The notes under the pieces are model-generated. The model was not told the origin of the DNA, ran no database searches, and saw only the letters and a list, made by a program, of their open reading frames with translations. This document shows, piece after piece, positions 5,633 to 13,232 of a stretch of DNA of 64,000 nt. Within the stretch, counting starts at the first letter, position 1, and each line of letters starts with the position of its first letter. Source of the DNA: Escherichia coli (lineage in GTDB: Bacteria; Pseudomonadota; Gammaproteobacteria; Enterobacterales; Enterobacteriaceae); assembly GCF_009931435.1 (NCBI RefSeq), contig NZ_CP043414.1; one strand, 5' to 3'. The position numbers and the translations under genes were made by a program.

Positions 5633-7687
5633 CTACGGTTTTCTCGCCACCGGCACATCCAGATTTTTCAGTATTTCGACAAAGGGAGAGGGATTCTCTT
5701 TGTTAAACAATGCCCATACCCGATGGCGTGCCCGGGTCAGCGCCACGTACATTAACCGCCGTTCTTCAGCGTCCGGAAAATCCTCAACCGGGGGTAGTAG
5801 CGCCTCTTCCATAATCGACTCCCGCGCCGCAGCCGGAAAACCATCACTCCCCTCCTGCAAGCCAACGATGATGACGTAATCCGCCTGTTGCCCTTTGCTG
5901 GCATGAATGGTCATAAAATCGATTTGCAACTTCGGCCAGCGTGTTGCCGCTTTTTCCAGGCTGGCAGGCCTCATGTGATGGTAACGCGCCAGGATCAGAA
6001 TGCGCTCTTCCGGTTTGGCATAACCAGAGAGCTTATCCAGCAAAGCATCAAGTTGACTCTCATCCAATAACGTGACGGCTTTTTTGTCTCCATTGGTTAA
6101 GCTGTTTAGCGGCTTTTTCAGCTGGCCAGGGTTCTGCTGAATAAAACGGTTTGCCACCTCACCGATACGACTGTTAAAACGGTAAGTCGTGTCTAAATCA
6201 CAGCGATCGCCTTCACCAAAGTTTTCATGGAAAGCGGTGGTGAGCGACATTTGCGCACCGCTGAAACGGTAAATCGCCTGCCAGTCATCGCCAACGGCGA
6301 ACAACGTCGTTTGACTGTTTTGCTTGCGTAATGCCGCTAACAACGCTGCACGCTGCGGCGAGATATCCTGAAATTCATCAACCAGAATATGCTTCCACGG
6401 GCTGATAAAGCGACCTTTCTCCAGAATCACAATCGCCTGGTGAATAAGGCCGGAAAAATCGACAGCGTTTTCTGCCTTCAGCGCACCTTTCCAGGCTTTT
6501 AATAACGGGGCCATCAACTTGATACGTTTACTGAACAAGTCGCGAATCTCTTCAGGTGCATTGGCAATCATTTCTGCCTGTGCACCGCCGTGCATTCGCA
6601 TCAGACTTACCCAGCGATCGAGGCGAGAAGCAAGACGATGCTGTAATTTCTCATCATCCCAGAAGTTACCTTCTGGCACTGACCACTGCATTTCTTCCGT
6701 CAGCCATTGCCGCCAGCCCTTCGCCTGCGCTTTCTTTTCGCTGCATTGCTTACGCCACTCAGCAATAAAGAGTTCATGACGGGCAGCGGTATCATTTTCT
6801 AGTTTGCTGACTGTCGGAACTTTTTTGCTGCCCTGCTGAATAATATGCAGCGCCAGCGCATGAAATGTGCGTGCGGTAATGTCTTCGGTATGTAGTCGTT
6901 CTCGGATACGCTCGTCCATCTCTTCAGCTGCTTTGCGACCAAACGCCAGCAATAAAATTTGCTCAGGGGACGCTTCACCACGCGCCAGCAACCAGCCTGC
7001 ACGGGCCACCAGCACCGACGTTTTTCCGCTTCCTGCACCGGCCAGCACTAACAGAGAATGCTCGCCGTTAACGACTGCCCGGGCCTGCGCCGGATTCAGC
7101 GGTGAAGACTCAACCTGACGGAAAAAATCCACATACTCGGTAAGCATAGCTTCGGTATACGCCTGATTATGCTGCAACCGAGCGCCTTCAATATCTTTTA
7201 ACCAGGCCTGACATTTACGCCACGCCTCACGGCAGTTATCGAATTCTTCCAGTCGGTTGACCGGCAACGGCAACGCCAACAAAGCCTGGCGGATTTGTTG
7301 CTGCACGCCAGAAGTTTGCTCACGCGTCAGCCATTTATTTTCTCCGGTGCGCGTGGCAATCAAATCCAGTTGCTGGCGTAAAACACCAGCCGCAATTTCG
7401 CTCATCTCAGCACTCCACCGCCGCCAGTGAGCATCAAGATGATGGTAAAAACGCTGCGTCTCGCCCCATTCGGTGCCGTGCAGACGCACCACTTTTTCGT
7501 CCGGCAGTACAAATTCCAGCTCGCCCCATACCAGACCGCGCTTACAGTGAATTGCCAGTAATTGATTGAAAGGAATAAGGTATTCGTGGCGATCGCCGGA
7601 GACTTTAATCCCGGCATTGAGGATCACCGCCCGATCGTAAGGGTGCTGTGCCAGACGTTTTCCAAGCGTTGTCGCTTTCAGTTCCAT
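5633..7687 (-). CDS. helD: DNA helicase IV
   Basis: 684 aa from MELKATTLGKRLAQHPYDR...; UvrD-like helicase with GAGSGKT Walker A. The track ORF has a 31-aa 5' extension. Confidence 0.92.
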   Translation of the reverse strand: MELKATTLGKRLAQHPYDRAVILNAGIKVSGDRHEYLIPFNQLLAIHCKRGLVWGELEFVLPDEKVVRLHGTEWGETQRFYHHLDAHWRRWSAEMSEIAAGVLRQQLDLIATRTGENKWLTREQTSGVQQQIRQALLALPLPVNRLEEFDNCREAWRKCQAWLKDIEGARLQHNQAYTEAMLTEYVDFFRQVESSPLNPAQARAVVNGEHSLLVLAGAGSGKTSVLVARAGWLLARGEASPEQILLLAFGRKAAEEMDERIRERLHTEDITARTFHALALHIIQQGSKKVPTVSKLENDTAARHELFIAEWRKQCSEKKAQAKGWRQWLTEEMQWSVPEGNFWDDEKLQHRLASRLDRWVSLMRMHGGAQAEMIANAPEEIRDLFSKRIKLMAPLLKAWKGALKAENAVDFSGLIHQAIVILEKGRFISPWKHILVDEFQDISPQRAALLAALRKQNSQTTLFAVGDDWQAIYRFSGAQMSLTTAFHENFGEGDRCDLDTTYRFNSRIGEVANRFIQQNPGQLKKPLNSLTNGDKKAVTLLDESQLDALLDKLSGYAKPEERILILARYHHMRPASLEKAATRWPKLQIDFMTIHASKGQQADYVIIVGLQEGSDGFPAAARESIMEEALLPPVEDFPDAEERRLMYVALTRARHRVWALFNKENPSPFVEILKNLDVPVARKP

Positions 7688-7809
7688 GACTCTGTAGATC
7701 CACACGAAATGATTTCTTATCAGTGTAACCGTCAGAGAAAACGTGCTCCAGCCCAAAAAAACGTTACAATTGCCGCCCATTACTGAAAACCACAGTAAAG
7801 CGAGGTTTT

Positions 7810-8256
7810 ATGCGTACCGTTTTGAACATTCTGAACTTTGTGCTTGGCGGATTTGCCACCACTCTGGGCTGGCTGTTGGCGACTCTGGTCAGTATTGTGC
7901 TAATTTTTACCTTACCGCTGACACGATCCTGCTGGGAGATCACTAAACTGTCTCTGGTGCCTTATGGCAATGAAGCTATTCATGTCGATGAACTGAACCC
8001 GGCTGGCAAAAATGTGCTGCTGAATACTGGCGGTACGGTATTGAATATTTTCTGGCTGATTTTCTTTGGCTGGTGGTTATGCCTGATGCACATTGCAACG
8101 GGCATCGCACAATGTATTTCCATCATTGGCATTCCTGTCGGCATTGCGAACTTTAAAATTGCCGCTATTGCACTATGGCCGGTCGGTCGTCGCGTGGTAT
8201 CGGTAGAAACAGCGCAAGCTGCGCGTGAAGCCAATGCACGTCGTCGTTTTGAATAA
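7810..8256 (+). CDS. yccF: inner membrane protein YccF (DUF307)
   Basis: 148-aa hydrophobic ORF; recognised as YccF. Confidence 0.9.
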   Translation: MRTVLNILNFVLGGFATTLGWLLATLVSIVLIFTLPLTRSCWEITKLSLVPYGNEAIHVDELNPAGKNVLLNTGGTVLNIFWLIFFGWWLCLMHIATGIAQCISIIGIPVGIANFKIAAIALWPVGRRVVSVETAQAAREANARRRFE

Positions 8257-8274
8257 TCCACTAATATGGCCTTT

Positions 8275-10428
8275 ATGCTAAGTCCTTTGCTCAAACGCTA
8301 TACCTGGAACAGCGCCTGGCTGTATTACGCGCGTATTTTTATTGCGCTTTGTGGAACCACAGCGTTTCCGTGGTGGCTGGGTGATGTAAAACTGACGATT
8401 CCGCTGACGCTGGGGATGGTGGCAGCGGCGCTGACCGATCTCGATGACCGGCTGGCGGGACGTTTGCGTAACCTCATCATTACGCTGTTCTGCTTTTTTA
8501 TCGCCTCGGCCTCAGTAGAATTGCTGTTTCCCTGGCCCTGGCTATTTGCAATTGGTTTAACGCTCTCTACCAGCGGCTTCATTTTGCTCGGCGGTCTGGG
8601 TCAACGCTATGCAACAATTGCCTTCGGTGCGTTACTGATCGCCATTTACACTATGTTGGGGACGTCACTGTATGAGCACTGGTATCAGCAGCCGATGTAT
8701 CTGCTGGCCGGTGCCGTCTGGTACAACGTCCTGACACTTATTGGTCATCTGCTGTTCCCGGTCCGCCCGTTACAGGACAACCTGGCGCGTTGCTATGAAC
8801 AACTGGCGCGTTATCTTGAGCTCAAGTCGCGCATGTTTGATCCTGATATTGAAGATGAAAGCCAGGCACCGCTGTACGATTTGGCTCTCGCCAACGGTCA
8901 GCTGATGGCGACATTGAATCAGACGAAACTCTCGCTGCTGACCCGCTTACGTGGCGATCGTGGTCAACGGGGAACGCGTCGCACGCTGCATTATTACTTT
9001 GTCGCGCAGGATATTCACGAGCGTGCCAGTTCTTCTCATATTCAGTATCAAACATTGCGTGAACATTTTCGCCACAGCGACGTGCTGTTCCGTTTTCAGC
9101 GACTGATGTCGATGCAGGGCCAGGCGTGCCAGCAACTGTCACGTTGTATTTTGCTGCGTCAGCCTTATCAACATGATCCGCATTTTGAGCGCGCTTTTAC
9201 GCATATTGATGCTGCGCTGGAGCGGATGCGCGATAACGGCGCGCCTGCCGATTTACTCAAAACACTGGGATTTTTGCTGAACAATTTACGCGCTATTGAT
9301 GCCCAACTGGCAACAATTGAATCAGAACAGGCCCAGGCACTGCCCCATAATAATGACGAAAATGAGCTCGCTGATGACAGCCCGCACGGATTGAGTGATA
9401 TCTGGCTGCGTCTTAGCCGTCACTTCACACCGGAATCCGCCCTCTTCCGTCATGCGGTAAGAATGTCGCTGGTGTTGTGCTTCGGCTACGCCATCATTCA
9501 GATAACCGGAATGCATCACGGGTATTGGATATTGCTGACAAGTTTGTTTGTCTGCCAGCCAAACTATAACGCCACGCGCCACCGCCTGAAGTTAAGGATT
9601 ATTGGTACGCTGGTAGGTATCGCCATTGGCATTCCTGTGCTGTGGTTTGTGCCGTCACTGGAAGGGCAGCTGGTGCTGCTGGTTATTACCGGCGTGCTCT
9701 TTTTTGCCTTCCGTAACGTGCAATATGCCCATGCAACGATGTTCATCACACTTTTGGTGCTACTTTGTTTTAACTTGCTGGGTGAAGGTTTTGAAGTGGC
9801 GTTACCTCGCGTAATCGATACGCTGATTGGTTGTGCCATTGCGTGGGCGGCGGTGAGCTACATCTGGCCTGACTGGAAGTTTCGCAATCTGCCGCGCATG
9901 CTCGAACGTGCCACCGAGGCCAACTGTCGCTATCTCGATGCCATACTGGAGCAATACCATCAGGGGCGTGATAACCGTCTGGCGTATCGTATTGCCCGCC
10001 GCGATGCACACAACCGTGATGCTGAACTGGCGTCGGTGGTATCAAATATGTCCAGCGAGCCGAACGTTACCCCGCAAATTCGCGAGGCCGCGTTTCGGTT
10101 GCTGTGCCTTAACCATACGTTTACCAGCTATATCTCAGCCCTCGGTGCTCACCGGGAGCAGTTAACTAATCCTGAAATTCTGGCGTTTCTTGATGACGCA
10201 GTTTGCTATGTTGATGACGCGCTACATCATCAACCTGCTGATGAAGAACGCGTCAATCAGGCATTAGCTGACCTGAAACAGCGGATGCAGCAACTTGAAC
10301 CACGGGCAGACAGCAAAGAACCTCTGGTCGTACAACAAGTCGGGTTATTGATTGCATTACTGCCAGAGATTGGTCGTCTGCAACGCCAGATTACTCAAGT
10401 TCCGCAGGAAACTCCTGTTTCGGCGTAA
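8275..10428 (+). CDS. yccS: putative inner-membrane transporter (FUSC-like)
   Basis: 717 aa from MLSPLLKRYTWN.... An alternative ATG lies at 8266 (720 aa); neither start has a clear SD. Confidence 0.85.
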   Translation: MLSPLLKRYTWNSAWLYYARIFIALCGTTAFPWWLGDVKLTIPLTLGMVAAALTDLDDRLAGRLRNLIITLFCFFIASASVELLFPWPWLFAIGLTLSTSGFILLGGLGQRYATIAFGALLIAIYTMLGTSLYEHWYQQPMYLLAGAVWYNVLTLIGHLLFPVRPLQDNLARCYEQLARYLELKSRMFDPDIEDESQAPLYDLALANGQLMATLNQTKLSLLTRLRGDRGQRGTRRTLHYYFVAQDIHERASSSHIQYQTLREHFRHSDVLFRFQRLMSMQGQACQQLSRCILLRQPYQHDPHFERAFTHIDAALERMRDNGAPADLLKTLGFLLNNLRAIDAQLATIESEQAQALPHNNDENELADDSPHGLSDIWLRLSRHFTPESALFRHAVRMSLVLCFGYAIIQITGMHHGYWILLTSLFVCQPNYNATRHRLKLRIIGTLVGIAIGIPVLWFVPSLEGQLVLLVITGVLFFAFRNVQYAHATMFITLLVLLCFNLLGEGFEVALPRVIDTLIGCAIAWAAVSYIWPDWKFRNLPRMLERATEANCRYLDAILEQYHQGRDNRLAYRIARRDAHNRDAELASVVSNMSSEPNVTPQIREAAFRLLCLNHTFTSYISALGAHREQLTNPEILAFLDDAVCYVDDALHHQPADEERVNQALADLKQRMQQLEPRADSKEPLVVQQVGLLIALLPEIGRLQRQITQVPQETPVSA

Positions 10429-11020
10429 GAGAGTCAGCCCATTCTGCAAGCTCCTGGCGGCGTGCCACCGGGAGCGCAGCTTCATGAATGCCGATAATGG
10501 CCCCTTCAAGCATAAACAGAATCTTTTCTGTCACCAGACTGTTTTGCTGCCGCAGTCGCAACCAACACATTTTTGCCCCAAGTATACGTAACGCCCGTAC
10601 ATCCTTAATCCCCACCTCCCCGAGTATCGCTTCCAGATGAAAAGACATATTGGGCAAATCTTTCAGTCTTTCCCGGGTATTGCGCGTGCTTTTCTCTTTC
10701 AGCGCTGCATCGAGAGAATATTTCGACAGACGCACCAGCTTCAGTTGATTTCGCCATAGACTTTCATCAACCCGATAGTAATTGAGGGTAACGGATCGGC
10801 CACACTTTTTATATGTCAGCCAGACAGGCGGATGTTTTACACAGTACTGTGCACTTTGCTCACAAGCCCGAAGATACAACTCACCATCAGAAACCATCGC
10901 AAACACCGTGTCGTCAACGGTCAGGCTGTAACTACCAAACAATGATCGGTATTCAATTGTGCCCAACGTTGCCAGGTATTCTTGTGATTTATAGATCCGC
11001 TTATAGGAGAGGCTTTTCAT
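10391..11020 (-). CDS. sxy: competence regulator Sxy/TfoX
   Basis: 209-aa ORF recognised as Sxy. Its 3' end overlaps the yccS 3' end by 38 nt. Confidence 0.92.
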   Translation of the reverse strand: MKSLSYKRIYKSQEYLATLGTIEYRSLFGSYSLTVDDTVFAMVSDGELYLRACEQSAQYCVKHPPVWLTYKKCGRSVTLNYYRVDESLWRNQLKLVRLSKYSLDAALKEKSTRNTRERLKDLPNMSFHLEAILGEVGIKDVRALRILGAKMCWLRLRQQNSLVTEKILFMLEGAIIGIHEAALPVARRQELAEWADSLTPKQEFPAELE

Positions 11021-11196
11021 AAAATTCCTTTTAAAATCATAACATAAAAGAATTATTCACATTAACGGATCCGTTAACTACGAAAATAGGCAACTTATTC
11101 TTAAGGGGCAAGATTAATTTATGTTTTCCCGTCACTAACGACAAAATTTGCGAGGCTCTTTCCGAAAATAGGGTTGATCTTTGTCGTCACTGGATG

Positions 11197-11216
11197 TACT
11201 GTACATCCATACAGTA
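11197..11216. promoter_or_regulatory. LexA (SOS) box in the sulA promoter
   Basis: tACTGTacatccatACAGta fits the CTGT-N8-ACAG consensus, about 23 nt upstream of the sulA ATG. Confidence 0.9.
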
Positions 11217-11238
11217 ACTCACAGGGGCTGGATTGATT

Positions 11239-11748
11239 ATGTACACTTCAGGCTATGCACATCGTTCTTCGTCGTTCTCATCCGCAGCAAGTAAAATTGC
11301 GCGTGTCTCTACGGAAAACACTACAGCCGGGCTTATCAGTGAAGTTGTCTATCGCGAAGATCAGCCCATGATGACGCAACTTCTACTGTTGCCATTGTTA
11401 CAGCAACTCGGTCAGCAATCGCGCTGGCAACTCTGGTTAACACCGCAACAAAAACTGAGTCGGGAATGGGTTCAGGCATCTGGGCTACCCTTAACGAAAG
11501 TGATGCAGATTAGCCAGCTCTCCCCTTGCCACACTGTGGAGTCAATGGTTCGCGCTTTACGCACGGGCAATTACAGTGTGGTGATCGGTTGGTTGGCAGA
11601 TGATTTGACTGAAGAAGAGCATGCTGAACTTGTTGATGCGGCAAATGAAGGTAACGCTATGGGGTTTATTATGCGTCCGGTAAGCGCATCCTCTCACGCA
11701 ACGAGACAACTTTCCGGGCTAAAAATTCACTCTAATTTGTATCATTAA
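11239..11748 (+). CDS. sulA: SOS cell-division inhibitor SulA
   Basis: 169 aa from [13 protein letters not shown]...; the LexA box lies immediately upstream. Confidence 0.93.
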
Positions 11749-11971
11749 GTAAATTTAGGAGTAATCCTGGAACTTTTTTTGTCGCCCAGCCAATGCTTTC
11801 AGTCGTGACTAATATTCCTTGCGAAGTCTTGTCTGAAGCGGTTTCCGCGATTTTCTTCTGTAAATTGTCGCTGACAAAAAAGATTAAACGTACCTTATAC
11901 AAGACTTTTTTTTCATATGCCTGACGGAGTTCACACTTGTAAGTTTTCAACTACGTTGTAGACTTTACATC

Positions 11972-12104
11972 GCCAGGGGTGCTCGGCATAAGCCGAAGAT
12001 ATCGGTAGAGTTAATATTGAGCAGATCCCCCGGTGAAGGATTTAACCGTGTTATCTCGTTGGAGATATTCATGGCGTATTTTGGATGATAACGAGGCGCA
12101 AAAA
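11972..12104 (+). promoter_or_regulatory. ompA 5' UTR (about 133 nt, structured; Hfq/MicA target near the RBS)
   Basis: Sequence from gccaggggtgctcggcataagccgaag... to ...gaggcgcaaaaaATG matches the ompA leader as I recall it. Confidence 0.8.
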
Positions 12105-13157
12105 ATGAAAAAGACAGCTATCGCGATTGCAGTGGCACTGGCTGGTTTCGCTACCGTAGCGCAGGCCGCTCCGAAAGATAACACCTGGTACACTGGTGCT
12201 AAACTGGGCTGGTCCCAGTACCATGACACTGGTTTCATCAACAACAATGGTCCGACCCACGAAAACCAACTGGGTGCAGGTGCTTTTGGTGGTTACCAGG
12301 TTAACCCGTATGTTGGCTTTGAAATGGGTTACGACTGGTTAGGTCGTATGCCGTACAAAGGCGACAACATCAATGGCGCATATAAAGCTCAGGGCGTTCA
12401 ACTGACCGCCAAACTGGGTTACCCAATCACTGACGATCTGGACATCTACACTCGTCTGGGTGGTATGGTATGGCGTGCAGACACCAAGGCTAACGTACCT
12501 GGTGGCGCATCCTTTAAAGACCACGATACCGGTGTTTCTCCGGTCTTCGCTGGCGGTGTTGAGTACGCGATCACTCCTGAAATCGCTACCCGTCTGGAAT
12601 ACCAGTGGACCAACAACATCGGTGACGCACACACCATCGGTACTCGTCCGGACAACGGCCTGCTGAGCCTGGGTGTTTCCTACCGTTTCGGTCAGGGCGA
12701 AGCAGCTCCAGTAGTTGCTCCGGCACCAGCTCCGGCACCGGAAGTACAGACCAAGCACTTCACTCTGAAGTCTGACGTTCTGTTCAACTTCAACAAAGCA
12801 ACCCTGAAACCGGAAGGTCAGGCTGCTCTGGATCAGCTGTACAGCCAGCTGAGCAACCTGGATCCGAAAGATGGTTCCGTAGTTGTTCTGGGTTACACTG
12901 ACCGCATCGGTTCTGACGCTTACAACCAGGGTCTGTCCGAGCGTCGTGCTCAGTCCGTTGTTGATTACCTGATCTCTAAAGGTATCCCGGCAGACAAAAT
13001 CTCTGCACGTGGTATGGGTGAATCCAACCCGGTTACTGGCAACACCTGTGACAACGTGAAACAGCGTGCTGCGCTGATCGACTGCCTGGCTCCGGATCGT
13101 CGCGTAGAGATCGAAGTTAAAGGCATCAAAGACGTTGTAACTCAGCCGCAGGCTTAA
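12105..13157 (+). CDS. ompA: outer membrane protein A
   Basis: 346 aa from [21 protein letters not shown]..., with the APAPAPAP hinge and OmpA-C domain. The track ORF at 12033 is an in-frame upstream extension across the 5' UTR. Confidence 0.97.
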
Positions 13158-13172
13158 GTTATCGTCTGATAG

Positions 13173-13201
13173 AAAAACCCCGCAGCTGCGGGGTTTTTTT
13201 C
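13173..13201. terminator. rho-independent terminator after ompA (may also serve convergent matP)
   Basis: Hairpin ccccgcagctgcgggg followed by a T8 run. Confidence 0.8.
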
Positions 13202-13232
13202 GCCTTGCGTAAATTGAACTGACTCTCGACAG

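Follow-up and report, generated by a model that had tools for sequence, protein, structure and literature searches.

Neighbouring genes on opposite strands whose transcripts are complementary at their 3' ends have been described in Escherichia coli as convergent excludons (Conway 2014, mBio; ExcludonFinder, Sanmartin et al. 2025, NAR), and the pair formed by yccS and the competence regulator gene sxy is named in both works. Conway 2014 (PMC4161252, Fig. 2) includes sxy-yccS among overlapping convergent transcripts, and ExcludonFinder (PMC12288877, Table 1) gives it as one of 165 convergent excludons, a listing given to pairs whose transcripts overlap in 50% or more of 58 MG1655 RNA-seq samples. 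According to the literature, the 3' ends overlap in 276 of the 370 convergent operons of E. coli, with a mean overlap of 286 nt, and 58 convergent overlaps involve the coding sequences (CDSs) themselves, with predicted intrinsic terminators for just 20% of the genes concerned (PMC2174442). The excludon concept implies reciprocal repression, whereas for yccS and sxy only the overlap of the transcripts is documented; moreover, their overlap goes beyond the 3' UTRs to include coding sequence. The pair is also like the tail-to-tail overlapping genes of prokaryotes (Rogozin 2002; Lillo and Krakauer 2007; Palleja 2008), in which 3' ends are extended into the neighbour and no room is left for an intergenic terminator, so that any terminator must lie in the coding sequence of the partner. 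Most convergent overlaps are of 4 nt, whereas that of yccS and sxy is of 38 nt in E. coli and ranges from 4 to 80 nt at the same junction across species. The convergent transcripts of dnaQ-rnh and ilvA-ilvY (Nomura 1985; Sameshima 1989, as cited by Conway 2014) likewise overlap and terminate within each other, their ends having been mapped by experiment, whereas those of yccS and sxy are deduced here from sequence. Finally, Dar and Sorek 2018 (PMC6061677) describe Rho-dependent 3' ends as stable stem-loops that lack a following U-rich stretch and have rut sites directly downstream.

The DNA analysed here (the window) is a stretch of 64 kb from E. coli, in which yccS lies on the + strand and sxy on the - strand. 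The features considered are the following.

7810..8256, + strand: yccF CDS, first gene of the yccF-yccS operon (ORF list; RefSeq of K-12 and of the closest strain).
8275..10428, + strand: yccS CDS, 717 aa with the K-12 start, a FUSC-like putative transporter (ORF list, RefSeq).
11020..10391, - strand: sxy (tfoX) CDS, 209 aa, CRP-S coactivator (ORF list, RefSeq, PF04993/PF04994).
10391..10428, both strands: tail-to-tail CDS overlap, 38 nt (ORF list, sequence, RefSeq).
10375..10438, both strands: junction between the last conserved codons (YccS G700, Sxy W194), 64 nt, kept in length and not in sequence.
10444..10479, + strand: conserved stem-loop, rich in GC and lacking a U-tract, proposed to protect the 3' end of the yccFS mRNA (folding and comparative evidence).
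10500..10660, + strand: candidate Rho-utilisation region, rich in C and poor in G on the yccS-sense RNA and antisense to sxy codons ~121-174.
10315..10367, - strand: weak candidate sxy 3' hairpin and U-rich run within the yccS coding sequence, Escherichia only, low confidence.
11021..11135, - strand: sxy 5' UTR, derived from the ATG at 11020 and the transcription start given 115 nt upstream of it in the discussion of PMC3330819.

Control of sxy is known to act in this 5' UTR; the overlap is at the other end of the gene. The yccFS genes were treated as a single operon by Conway 2014 (PMC4161252).

A preliminary description of this DNA had proposed a convergent overlap of 38 nt between yccS and sxy, and this is borne out by the ORF list, by the sequence, by the RefSeq annotation of K-12 MG1655 (sxy, 1021138..1021767, +; yccS, 1021730..1023883, -; an overlap of 38 nt likewise) and by the PGAP annotation of the closest strain, which has the same overlap. 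The shared nucleotides, 10391-10428, contain the last 12 codons and the stop of each gene, with the TAA of yccS at 10426-10428 (+) and that of sxy at 10393..10391 (-). An annotation artefact could be ruled out, since the stops are fixed by the frames and the overlap is identical in the K-12 and PGAP annotations and invariant in E. coli. Stop positions, unlike start codons, are not open to mis-annotation; the start of yccS is set by PGAP at the ATG at 8266, which gives 720 aa. As read off the sequence, codon position 1 faces position 1, 2 faces 3 and 3 faces 2, so that no site of the overlap is synonymous in both genes. Both are genuine conserved genes that share 3' coding nucleotides from opposite strands, and the YccS orthologues (Pfam PF12805/PF13515) carry FUSC-like domains at all 80 loci compared, with 78-99% identity. 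The overlap itself is already known, since the reference annotation carries it and the pair figures in published lists of overlapping transcripts; the only new detail at this junction is a conserved RNA hairpin within sxy.

The yccS-sxy locus was found in 5425 of 5426 complete E. coli genomes, and within the species the junction is unusually invariant: a stretch of 100 nt is at least 99% identical in 5414 of the 5425 genomes, as against 1480 for the surrounding 1.3 kb. Overlap lengths beyond E. coli were computed from conserved protein anchors in 80 Enterobacteriaceae species. The YccS G700 codon (10372-10374 in the window) and the Sxy W194 codon (10439-10441) leave 64 nt between them, and this gap between the conserved cores is also of 64 nt in 47 of the 80 loci and of 54-65 nt in 78 of them. 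Within these limits the CDSs range from 11 nt apart to 80 nt of overlap (-11 to +80 nt in 78 of the 80 species; 38-41 nt in Escherichia), the overlap being present in 76 of the 80 with a length that varies between 4 and 80 nt. In the other two loci, inserts of 249 nt and 2.3 kb separate the genes, and in the Yersiniaceae yccS and sxy are kept apart by spacers of 36-44 nt. The tail of YccS beyond RLQxQ is not conserved, that of Sxy beyond W194 varies in length and sequence in the alignment, and almost no conserved columns were found in the aligned junction DNA of the Enterobacteriaceae loci. A conserved element within the overlap itself could thus be discarded, given the variability of both tails and of the junction columns.

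Both stop codons drift within the junction of 64 nt. When the spacer was shuffled 20,000 times, an overlap arose in 76% of the trials, and one of at least 38 nt in 65-66%, so the overlap is no more than is expected by chance of a tight junction. The variable length, the unconserved sequence, the insertions and the result of the shuffling argue that the 38 nt are the default outcome of such a junction and not a selected element. It has to be considered, nevertheless, that the two genes could form a functional excludon, in which transcription of yccFS into sxy, or of sxy into yccS, would lower expression of the partner in cis, making expression mutually exclusive and helping to keep sxy silent in laboratory E. 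coli. The tail-to-tail arrangement is maintained from Erwiniaceae and Yersiniaceae to Escherichia, and both this synteny and the constant junction length would also be predicted by a functional excludon; such pairs in general show higher synteny (ExcludonFinder) and less single-cell co-expression. However, the synteny embraces the entire matP-ompA-sulA-sxy-yccS-yccF-helD block, beyond the yccS/sxy pair alone, the length and sequence of the overlap are not conserved, and two lineages tolerate inserts between the genes, so that we regard a functional excludon as unlikely.

The hairpin lies just outside the overlap and begins 21 nt past the yccS stop, with a core stem in which 10450-10460 pair with 10465-10475 (+ strand). 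It is antisense to sxy codons 182-191, 48-85 nt upstream of the sxy stop and hence in the translated region; its location inside sxy follows from the lack of intergenic space at this junction. The minimum free energy (MFE) fold has a z of -3.1, a consensus hairpin was recovered by RNAalifold across 27 genera, and 90.9% of the stem cells are paired, as compared with 38-52% at slid positions. Compensatory changes affect five pairs, and none of 500 shuffles reached the observed score. Synonymous variation is strongly suppressed at the hairpin, both in comparison with the rest of sxy and in comparison with 145 C-terminal codons plus the whole of yccS, with frozen sites in sxy codons 182-190; the codon entropies of A182, L183, P184, R188 and E190 are each the lowest in their amino-acid class. 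The hairpin is absent outside the Enterobacteriaceae.

As to the strand on which the hairpin acts, folding energies are uninformative, since they are about equal (means of -20.5 kcal/mol for the sxy-sense and -21.2 kcal/mol for the yccS-sense strand), the yccS-sense form being the more stable in 38 of 76 sequences. It is conceivable therefore that the hairpin works in the sxy mRNA and not in the yccFS transcript, either as a translational pause near the C-terminal helix-hairpin-helix domain or as an RNase barrier or entry site that sets the half-life of the message, and in related species sxy is indeed controlled by mRNA structure, at the 5' end, according to the literature. Nonetheless, a hairpin in a translated region would be melted by ribosomes, and a block to exonucleases there would produce non-stop mRNA. 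Wobble pairing also favours the + strand, with 80 G.U pairs against 23, a modest strand signal that is owed largely to one column fixed by a Gln/Arg codon (38 against 23 without it). Since, in addition, the site 21 nt past the yccS stop and the C-rich tract that comes next fit a 3'-end module of yccFS, there is little likelihood that the hairpin serves sxy mRNA.

Being a GC-rich stem of 8-13 bp placed right behind the yccS stop, the hairpin could also be a weak factor-independent terminator of yccFS, possibly bidirectional and embedded in the convergent neighbour. Terminators predicted by TransTermHP overlap the transcription unit of the partner in 146 of the 165 convergent excludons (ExcludonFinder, PMC12288877), and Chimaeribacter (Yersiniaceae) has a GC-rich hairpin in its spacer of 44 nt. 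Yet on neither strand is the stem followed by a U-tract, the sequences past it being GCAGCUUCAUGAAU (+) and UUGCAGAAUGG (-), with at most 3-4 U in the next 11 nt in the alignment, which is not the make-up of an intrinsic terminator. A consensus scan rendered no canonical intrinsic terminator at the junction on either strand, a lenient scan rendered only weak, non-conserved candidates there, and neither scan called the hairpin a terminator. On the sxy strand, moreover, the hairpin would stop transcription ahead of the stop codon. Termination of the intrinsic type appears quite improbable on these grounds. A search of Rfam 15 over positions 7500-13000 gave no match at E <= 1; the sole weak, sub-threshold Rfam matches fall on the terminator hairpin downstream of ompA.

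Directly 3' of the stem-loop, the yccS-sense RNA is C-rich and G-poor in E. coli. The C/G ratio of this tract peaks at 3.3, its C-minus-G excess over 78 nt (0.269) is higher than in any of the 2271 antisense-of-gene windows of the 64 kb, and the tract of 160 nt at 10500-10660 is at the 99th percentile of such windows. Stem-loop without a U-tract after the stop codon and C-rich, G-poor tract thus match the architecture presented by Dar and Sorek 2018, and together they probably constitute a 3'-end module of yccFS; in comparison with the terminators described there, the putative module would be antisense within the CDS of another gene, whose synonymous sites it would constrain. The skew varies among other genera and is less pronounced there (mean 0.074; above 0.10 in 25 of 89 loci), and since the tract is strong in Escherichia and weak in many genera that conserve the hairpin, tract and hairpin may not belong to a single module. 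In the literature searched, no mapped 3' end of yccS or sxy and no data on Rho at this locus came up, and sxy, yccS and yccF are not mentioned in the supplements searched of the Term-seq paper of Adams 2021.

Taken as a whole, the explanation that we favour, with a probability of about 0.6, is that the overlap is a passive feature of an old, compact junction and not a dedicated element, and that a Rho-dependent 3'-end module of yccFS is embedded in sxy. Throughout the Enterobacteriaceae the conserved cores of YccS and Sxy end some 64 nt apart, and beyond them each frame continues, by way of a C-terminal tail free of constraint, up to its first stop, so that drift of the stops yields an overlap of variable length, 38 nt in E. 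coli. RNA polymerase would pass the yccS stop, Rho would load on the untranslated C-rich RNA and terminate transcription in the 3' third of sxy, and exonucleases would trim the yccFS RNA back to the hairpin, which probably marks the end of the message. Once matured in this way, the yccFS mRNA would be complementary to the final ~88 nt of the sxy mRNA. Transcripts of sxy, without a comparable conserved 3' signal, would probably extend some way antisense into yccS. On this strand, the lenient scan rendered a candidate at 10315..10367 (dG of -12.3 kcal/mol, tail GGTTCTTT) that belongs to an MFE fold with a z of -3.2. A conserved 3' structure of sxy within yccS could be discarded, however, since the RNAalifold consensus reaches just -3.5 kcal/mol and does not recover the candidate; no synonymous dip was seen near the junction in yccS codons 560-705.

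The preliminary description had also held that the mRNAs of the two genes are necessarily complementary at their 3' ends and that read-through from yccS could act on sxy as an antisense or interference input. The first of these statements holds, for at least 38 nt and trivially so, because both CDSs are transcribed through their stops; transcripts that end before the overlap are impossible for the same reason. The second is possible and unsupported, and nothing singles out this pair. A literature search found no paper on regulation of sxy by read-through, antisense or interference from yccS, and a search that combined sxy, Rho-dependent and antisense gave no match. The effect of the complementary ends on Sxy is probably small, as both genes are weakly expressed and sxy is known to be controlled through its 5' end and through the Sxy protein. 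In addition, the hairpin followed by the rut-like tract suggests that transcription of yccFS is halted soon after it enters sxy, so that any interference would be confined to the 3' third of the gene.

This early curtailment of read-through counts as well against the functional excludon, for which polymerase collision and RNase III cutting of a duplex of 38 bp or more, singly or combined, could be the mechanism. A duplex of 38-88 bp suffices for RNase III. The transcript overlap required is obligatory and documented in the literature, but overlaps of this kind occur in 276 of the 370 convergent operons regardless, and p19 capture of dsRNA did not validate convergent excludons. No natural inducer of sxy is known in E. 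coli (PMC3330819), and an unrecognised negative input is therefore conceivable. In an extended form of this idea, which we consider very unlikely, transcription of yccFS, ended by the hairpin/Rho module inside sxy, would be a cis brake on sxy: relaxed Rho termination or induction of yccFS would let invading polymerases and antisense RNA silence sxy, and sxy driven by CRP-S would in turn shut off yccS.

The coordinates imply that neither gene can be deleted or replaced without a change to the other. Removal of sxy would take away the hairpin and the C-rich tract, and possibly the last codons of YccS, and removal of yccS can clip the C-terminal tail of Sxy, so that phenotypes of sxy and yccS knockouts need to be checked for effects on the neighbour. 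The frozen synonymous sites are likewise relevant to any recoding or mutagenesis of sxy.

As it stands, the overlap matters little in itself, being one of 165 convergent excludons and of about 58 convergent CDS overlaps. The series of species represents a clean natural case of stop-codon drift, with the junction fixed in length and the overlap moving from -11 to +80 nt, and it argues against reading function into the length of an overlap. The embedded hairpin, for its part, would show how the 3'-end signal of a neighbour freezes synonymous sites in a regulator gene. Were the genes a functional excludon, this would bear on what induces the competence genes of E. coli; and a cis brake exerted by yccFS, if true, would add to the control of competence a layer located at the 3' end and dependent on chromosomal context, which could help to explain why sxy works when it is borne on a plasmid, whereas the chromosomal gene is never induced in laboratory E. 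coli.

The 38 nt shared by the yccS and sxy coding sequences, set out in the preliminary description, are borne out alike by the ORFs of the window, by the RefSeq annotation of K-12 MG1655 (sxy 1021138..1021767, yccS 1021730..1023883) and by the PGAP annotation of the closest strain. The genes lie in the E. coli chromosomal order helD, yccF-yccS (+ strand), sxy (- strand), sulA and ompA, with the following features at the junction:

10426-10428, + strand, stop codon TAA of yccS (ORF list and sequence)
11020..10391, - strand, sxy coding sequence, stop codon TAA at 10393..10391 (ORF list and sequence)
10391-10428, stretch common to both coding sequences
10450-10460 paired with 10465-10475, + strand, stem of a conserved hairpin (RNAalifold, 27 genera)
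10367-10315, - strand, weak hairpin and U-rich run on the sxy 3' side, limited to Escherichia

The yccS start is ATG at 8275 in K-12 RefSeq (717 aa) and ATG at 8266 in the PGAP annotation (720 aa), a discrepancy irrelevant to the 3' overlap.

In 80 species-level Enterobacteriaceae genomes, with both stops placed from the conserved anchors Sxy W194 and YccS G700, the tail-to-tail arrangement held at every one of the 80 loci, and the anchor gap was 54-65 nt at 78, with exactly 64 nt at 47. The overlap itself varied.

Length of the sxy/yccS overlap
Escherichia: 38-41 nt
Salmonella: 14-23 nt
Citrobacter: 11-47 nt
Enterobacter, Lelliottia: 44 nt
Leclercia, Silvania: 16-20 nt
Kosakonia: 7 nt
Buttiauxella, Phytobacter: 4 nt
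Trabulsiella: 80 nt
Kluyvera: -11 to 11 nt

Neither length nor sequence of the overlapped protein tails is conserved, and conserved columns are almost absent from the aligned junction DNA. When the 64-nt spacer was shuffled, 76% of trials gave an overlap and ca. 65% gave one of 38 nt or more; the overlaps seen in the genomes tend, if anything, towards shorter lengths than chance gives. On these grounds the overlap was rejected as a conserved element; given the tight anchor gap, the drifting stops and the shuffling result, it is the default product of a very tight junction. Two lineages have moved the genes apart. A 2.3-kb insert in Superficieibacter electus (locus L051:4115-6402), with ORFs for a 425-aa PTS EIIC-like permease and for 200 aa, both on the yccS strand, implies that tail-to-tail contact is dispensable in at least one lineage. 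Enterobacteriaceae bacterium UBA5654 (locus L049:4125-4373) has a 249-nt non-coding structured spacer with strong inverted repeats (e.g. CCCCTGTATCCC...GGGATACAGGGG), which could be an inserted REP-like element or terminator. Further away, Erwiniaceae (Tatumella, Rosenbergiella) show a 26-nt overlap, Yersiniaceae keep the genes convergent with a 36-44-nt spacer (loci L087:4628-4671 and L089:4631-4666), and in Plesiomonas yccS does not adjoin sxy.

Within the species, all but one of 5426 complete E. coli genomes carry the locus. Identity reached 99% or more over the 100 nt spanning the junction in 5414 of these 5425, and over the surrounding 1.3 kb in just 1480. Codon positions 1, 2 and 3 of one gene face positions 1, 3 and 2 of the other, so that no site is synonymous in both, which probably adds to this invariance. 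Of the 5427 matches to 10000-11300, four belong to records described as plasmids, and the locus occurs twice in a few genomes; mis-assignment of replicons or duplication could account for these cases.

The 160-nt 3' regions of the two strands each fold more stably than shuffled sequence (z ca. -3.1 and -3.2), and on the yccS-sense strand a conserved hairpin, GCTCC(T/C)GGCG-loop-CGCCGGGAGC, starts 21 nt past the yccS stop, antisense to sxy codons 182-191. Among 71 distinct Enterobacteriaceae sequences 90.9% of cells were paired, against 38-52% when partner columns were slid; 5 of 11 pairs showed compensatory changes, and 0 of 500 shuffles matched the covariation. The stem is not imposed by the Sxy peptide motif, and relatives outside the Enterobacteriaceae retain much of that motif without the hairpin. 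Codon entropy at the stem-forming positions is the lowest in sxy for the respective amino-acid class and does not exceed the 5th percentile of the larger yccS background.

Codons of sxy that form the stem
L183: CTC, non-preferred (75/88), 0.88 bits vs 1.77-2.42 at 20 other Leu sites
P184: CCG (84/87), 0.25 bits vs 1.76
R188: CGC, 0.82 bits, class minimum
A182: GCG, 1.05 bits, class minimum
E190: GAG, 0.62 bits, class minimum

The count of wobble pairs speaks for the yccS-sense strand (80 G.U vs 23, or 38 vs 23 without the Gln/Arg column); folding energies do not discriminate between strands. It is rather unlikely that the hairpin acts in the sxy mRNA itself. In Chimaeribacter (Yersiniaceae) the spacer contains a GC-rich hairpin of 10 perfectly paired bp, GGGTAGCCGG-N7-CCGGCTACCC, which may be the intergenic counterpart of the one within sxy of Enterobacteriaceae.

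Terminator scans found no canonical hairpin-plus-U-tract terminator near the junction on either strand, and an Rfam search there gave no match. (Just past ompA, at 13090-13228, sub-threshold matches to istR, Leu_leader and RsmY on both strands, with 19-30 bits where the gathering scores are 45-57, most likely only reflect a strong bidirectional terminator hairpin.) That the conserved stem is a weak intrinsic terminator seems improbable, the U-tract being absent from its 3' side. It is followed in E. coli by ca. 160 nt of exceptionally C-rich, G-poor yccS-sense RNA (99th percentile), with a 78-nt C-minus-G excess of 0.269 that surpasses all 2271 antisense-of-gene control windows in the 64 kb; other genera show this skew less strongly. 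Dar and Sorek (2018, PMC6061677) describe Rho-dependent 3' ends as stable stem-loops without following U-rich sequence, protecting against PNPase and RNase II and with rut sites directly downstream, a description that the stem-loop and C-rich tract fit. Published data yielded no mapped 3' end for the locus, and hence it is by inference that we assign a Rho-dependent end. The yccFS polymerase would go beyond the yccS stop, Rho would load on the untranslated C-rich RNA and terminate within the 3' third of sxy, and exonucleases would trim the RNA back to the hairpin, leaving a yccFS mRNA complementary to roughly the final 88 nt of the sxy mRNA. For the 3' end of sxy, nothing comparably conserved was found inside yccS, into which sxy transcripts may extend an undefined distance. 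We give this account, from tight junction and drifting stops to frozen-site hairpin and Rho termination inside sxy, a probability of about 0.6.

The complementarity of the mRNA 3' ends that had been deduced from the overlap is real and published. The pair is named by Conway et al. (2014), and ExcludonFinder (NAR 2025, PMC12288877) lists sxy-yccS as one of 165 convergent excludons in MG1655, a call made when the transcripts overlap in 50% or more of 58 RNA-seq samples. A genuine excludon, acting through interference in cis or RNase III cleavage, is doubtful. Nothing indicates that the complementary ends regulate sxy beyond what holds for hundreds of other convergent pairs. Convergent E. coli operons overlap in 276 of 370 cases, by 286 nt on average (Conway et al. 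2014, PMC4161252), and of the genes in the ca. 58 convergent coding overlaps only 20% have a predicted intrinsic terminator (PMC2174442). Known control of sxy involves its promoter, 5' UTR and autoregulation, its natural inducing condition in E. coli is not known, and our literature search found no paper testing an effect of yccFS transcription on it. In the same neighbourhood, Conway et al. reported a sulA-ompA co-transcript and an antisense transcription unit over sulA (ca. 11240-11750), switched on in stationary phase. The yccS/sxy overlap is unremarkable and had been described before; what is added is only the conserved hairpin within sxy, one more example of a familiar type of 3'-end signal, which is of practical relevance when sxy or yccS is recoded or deleted.
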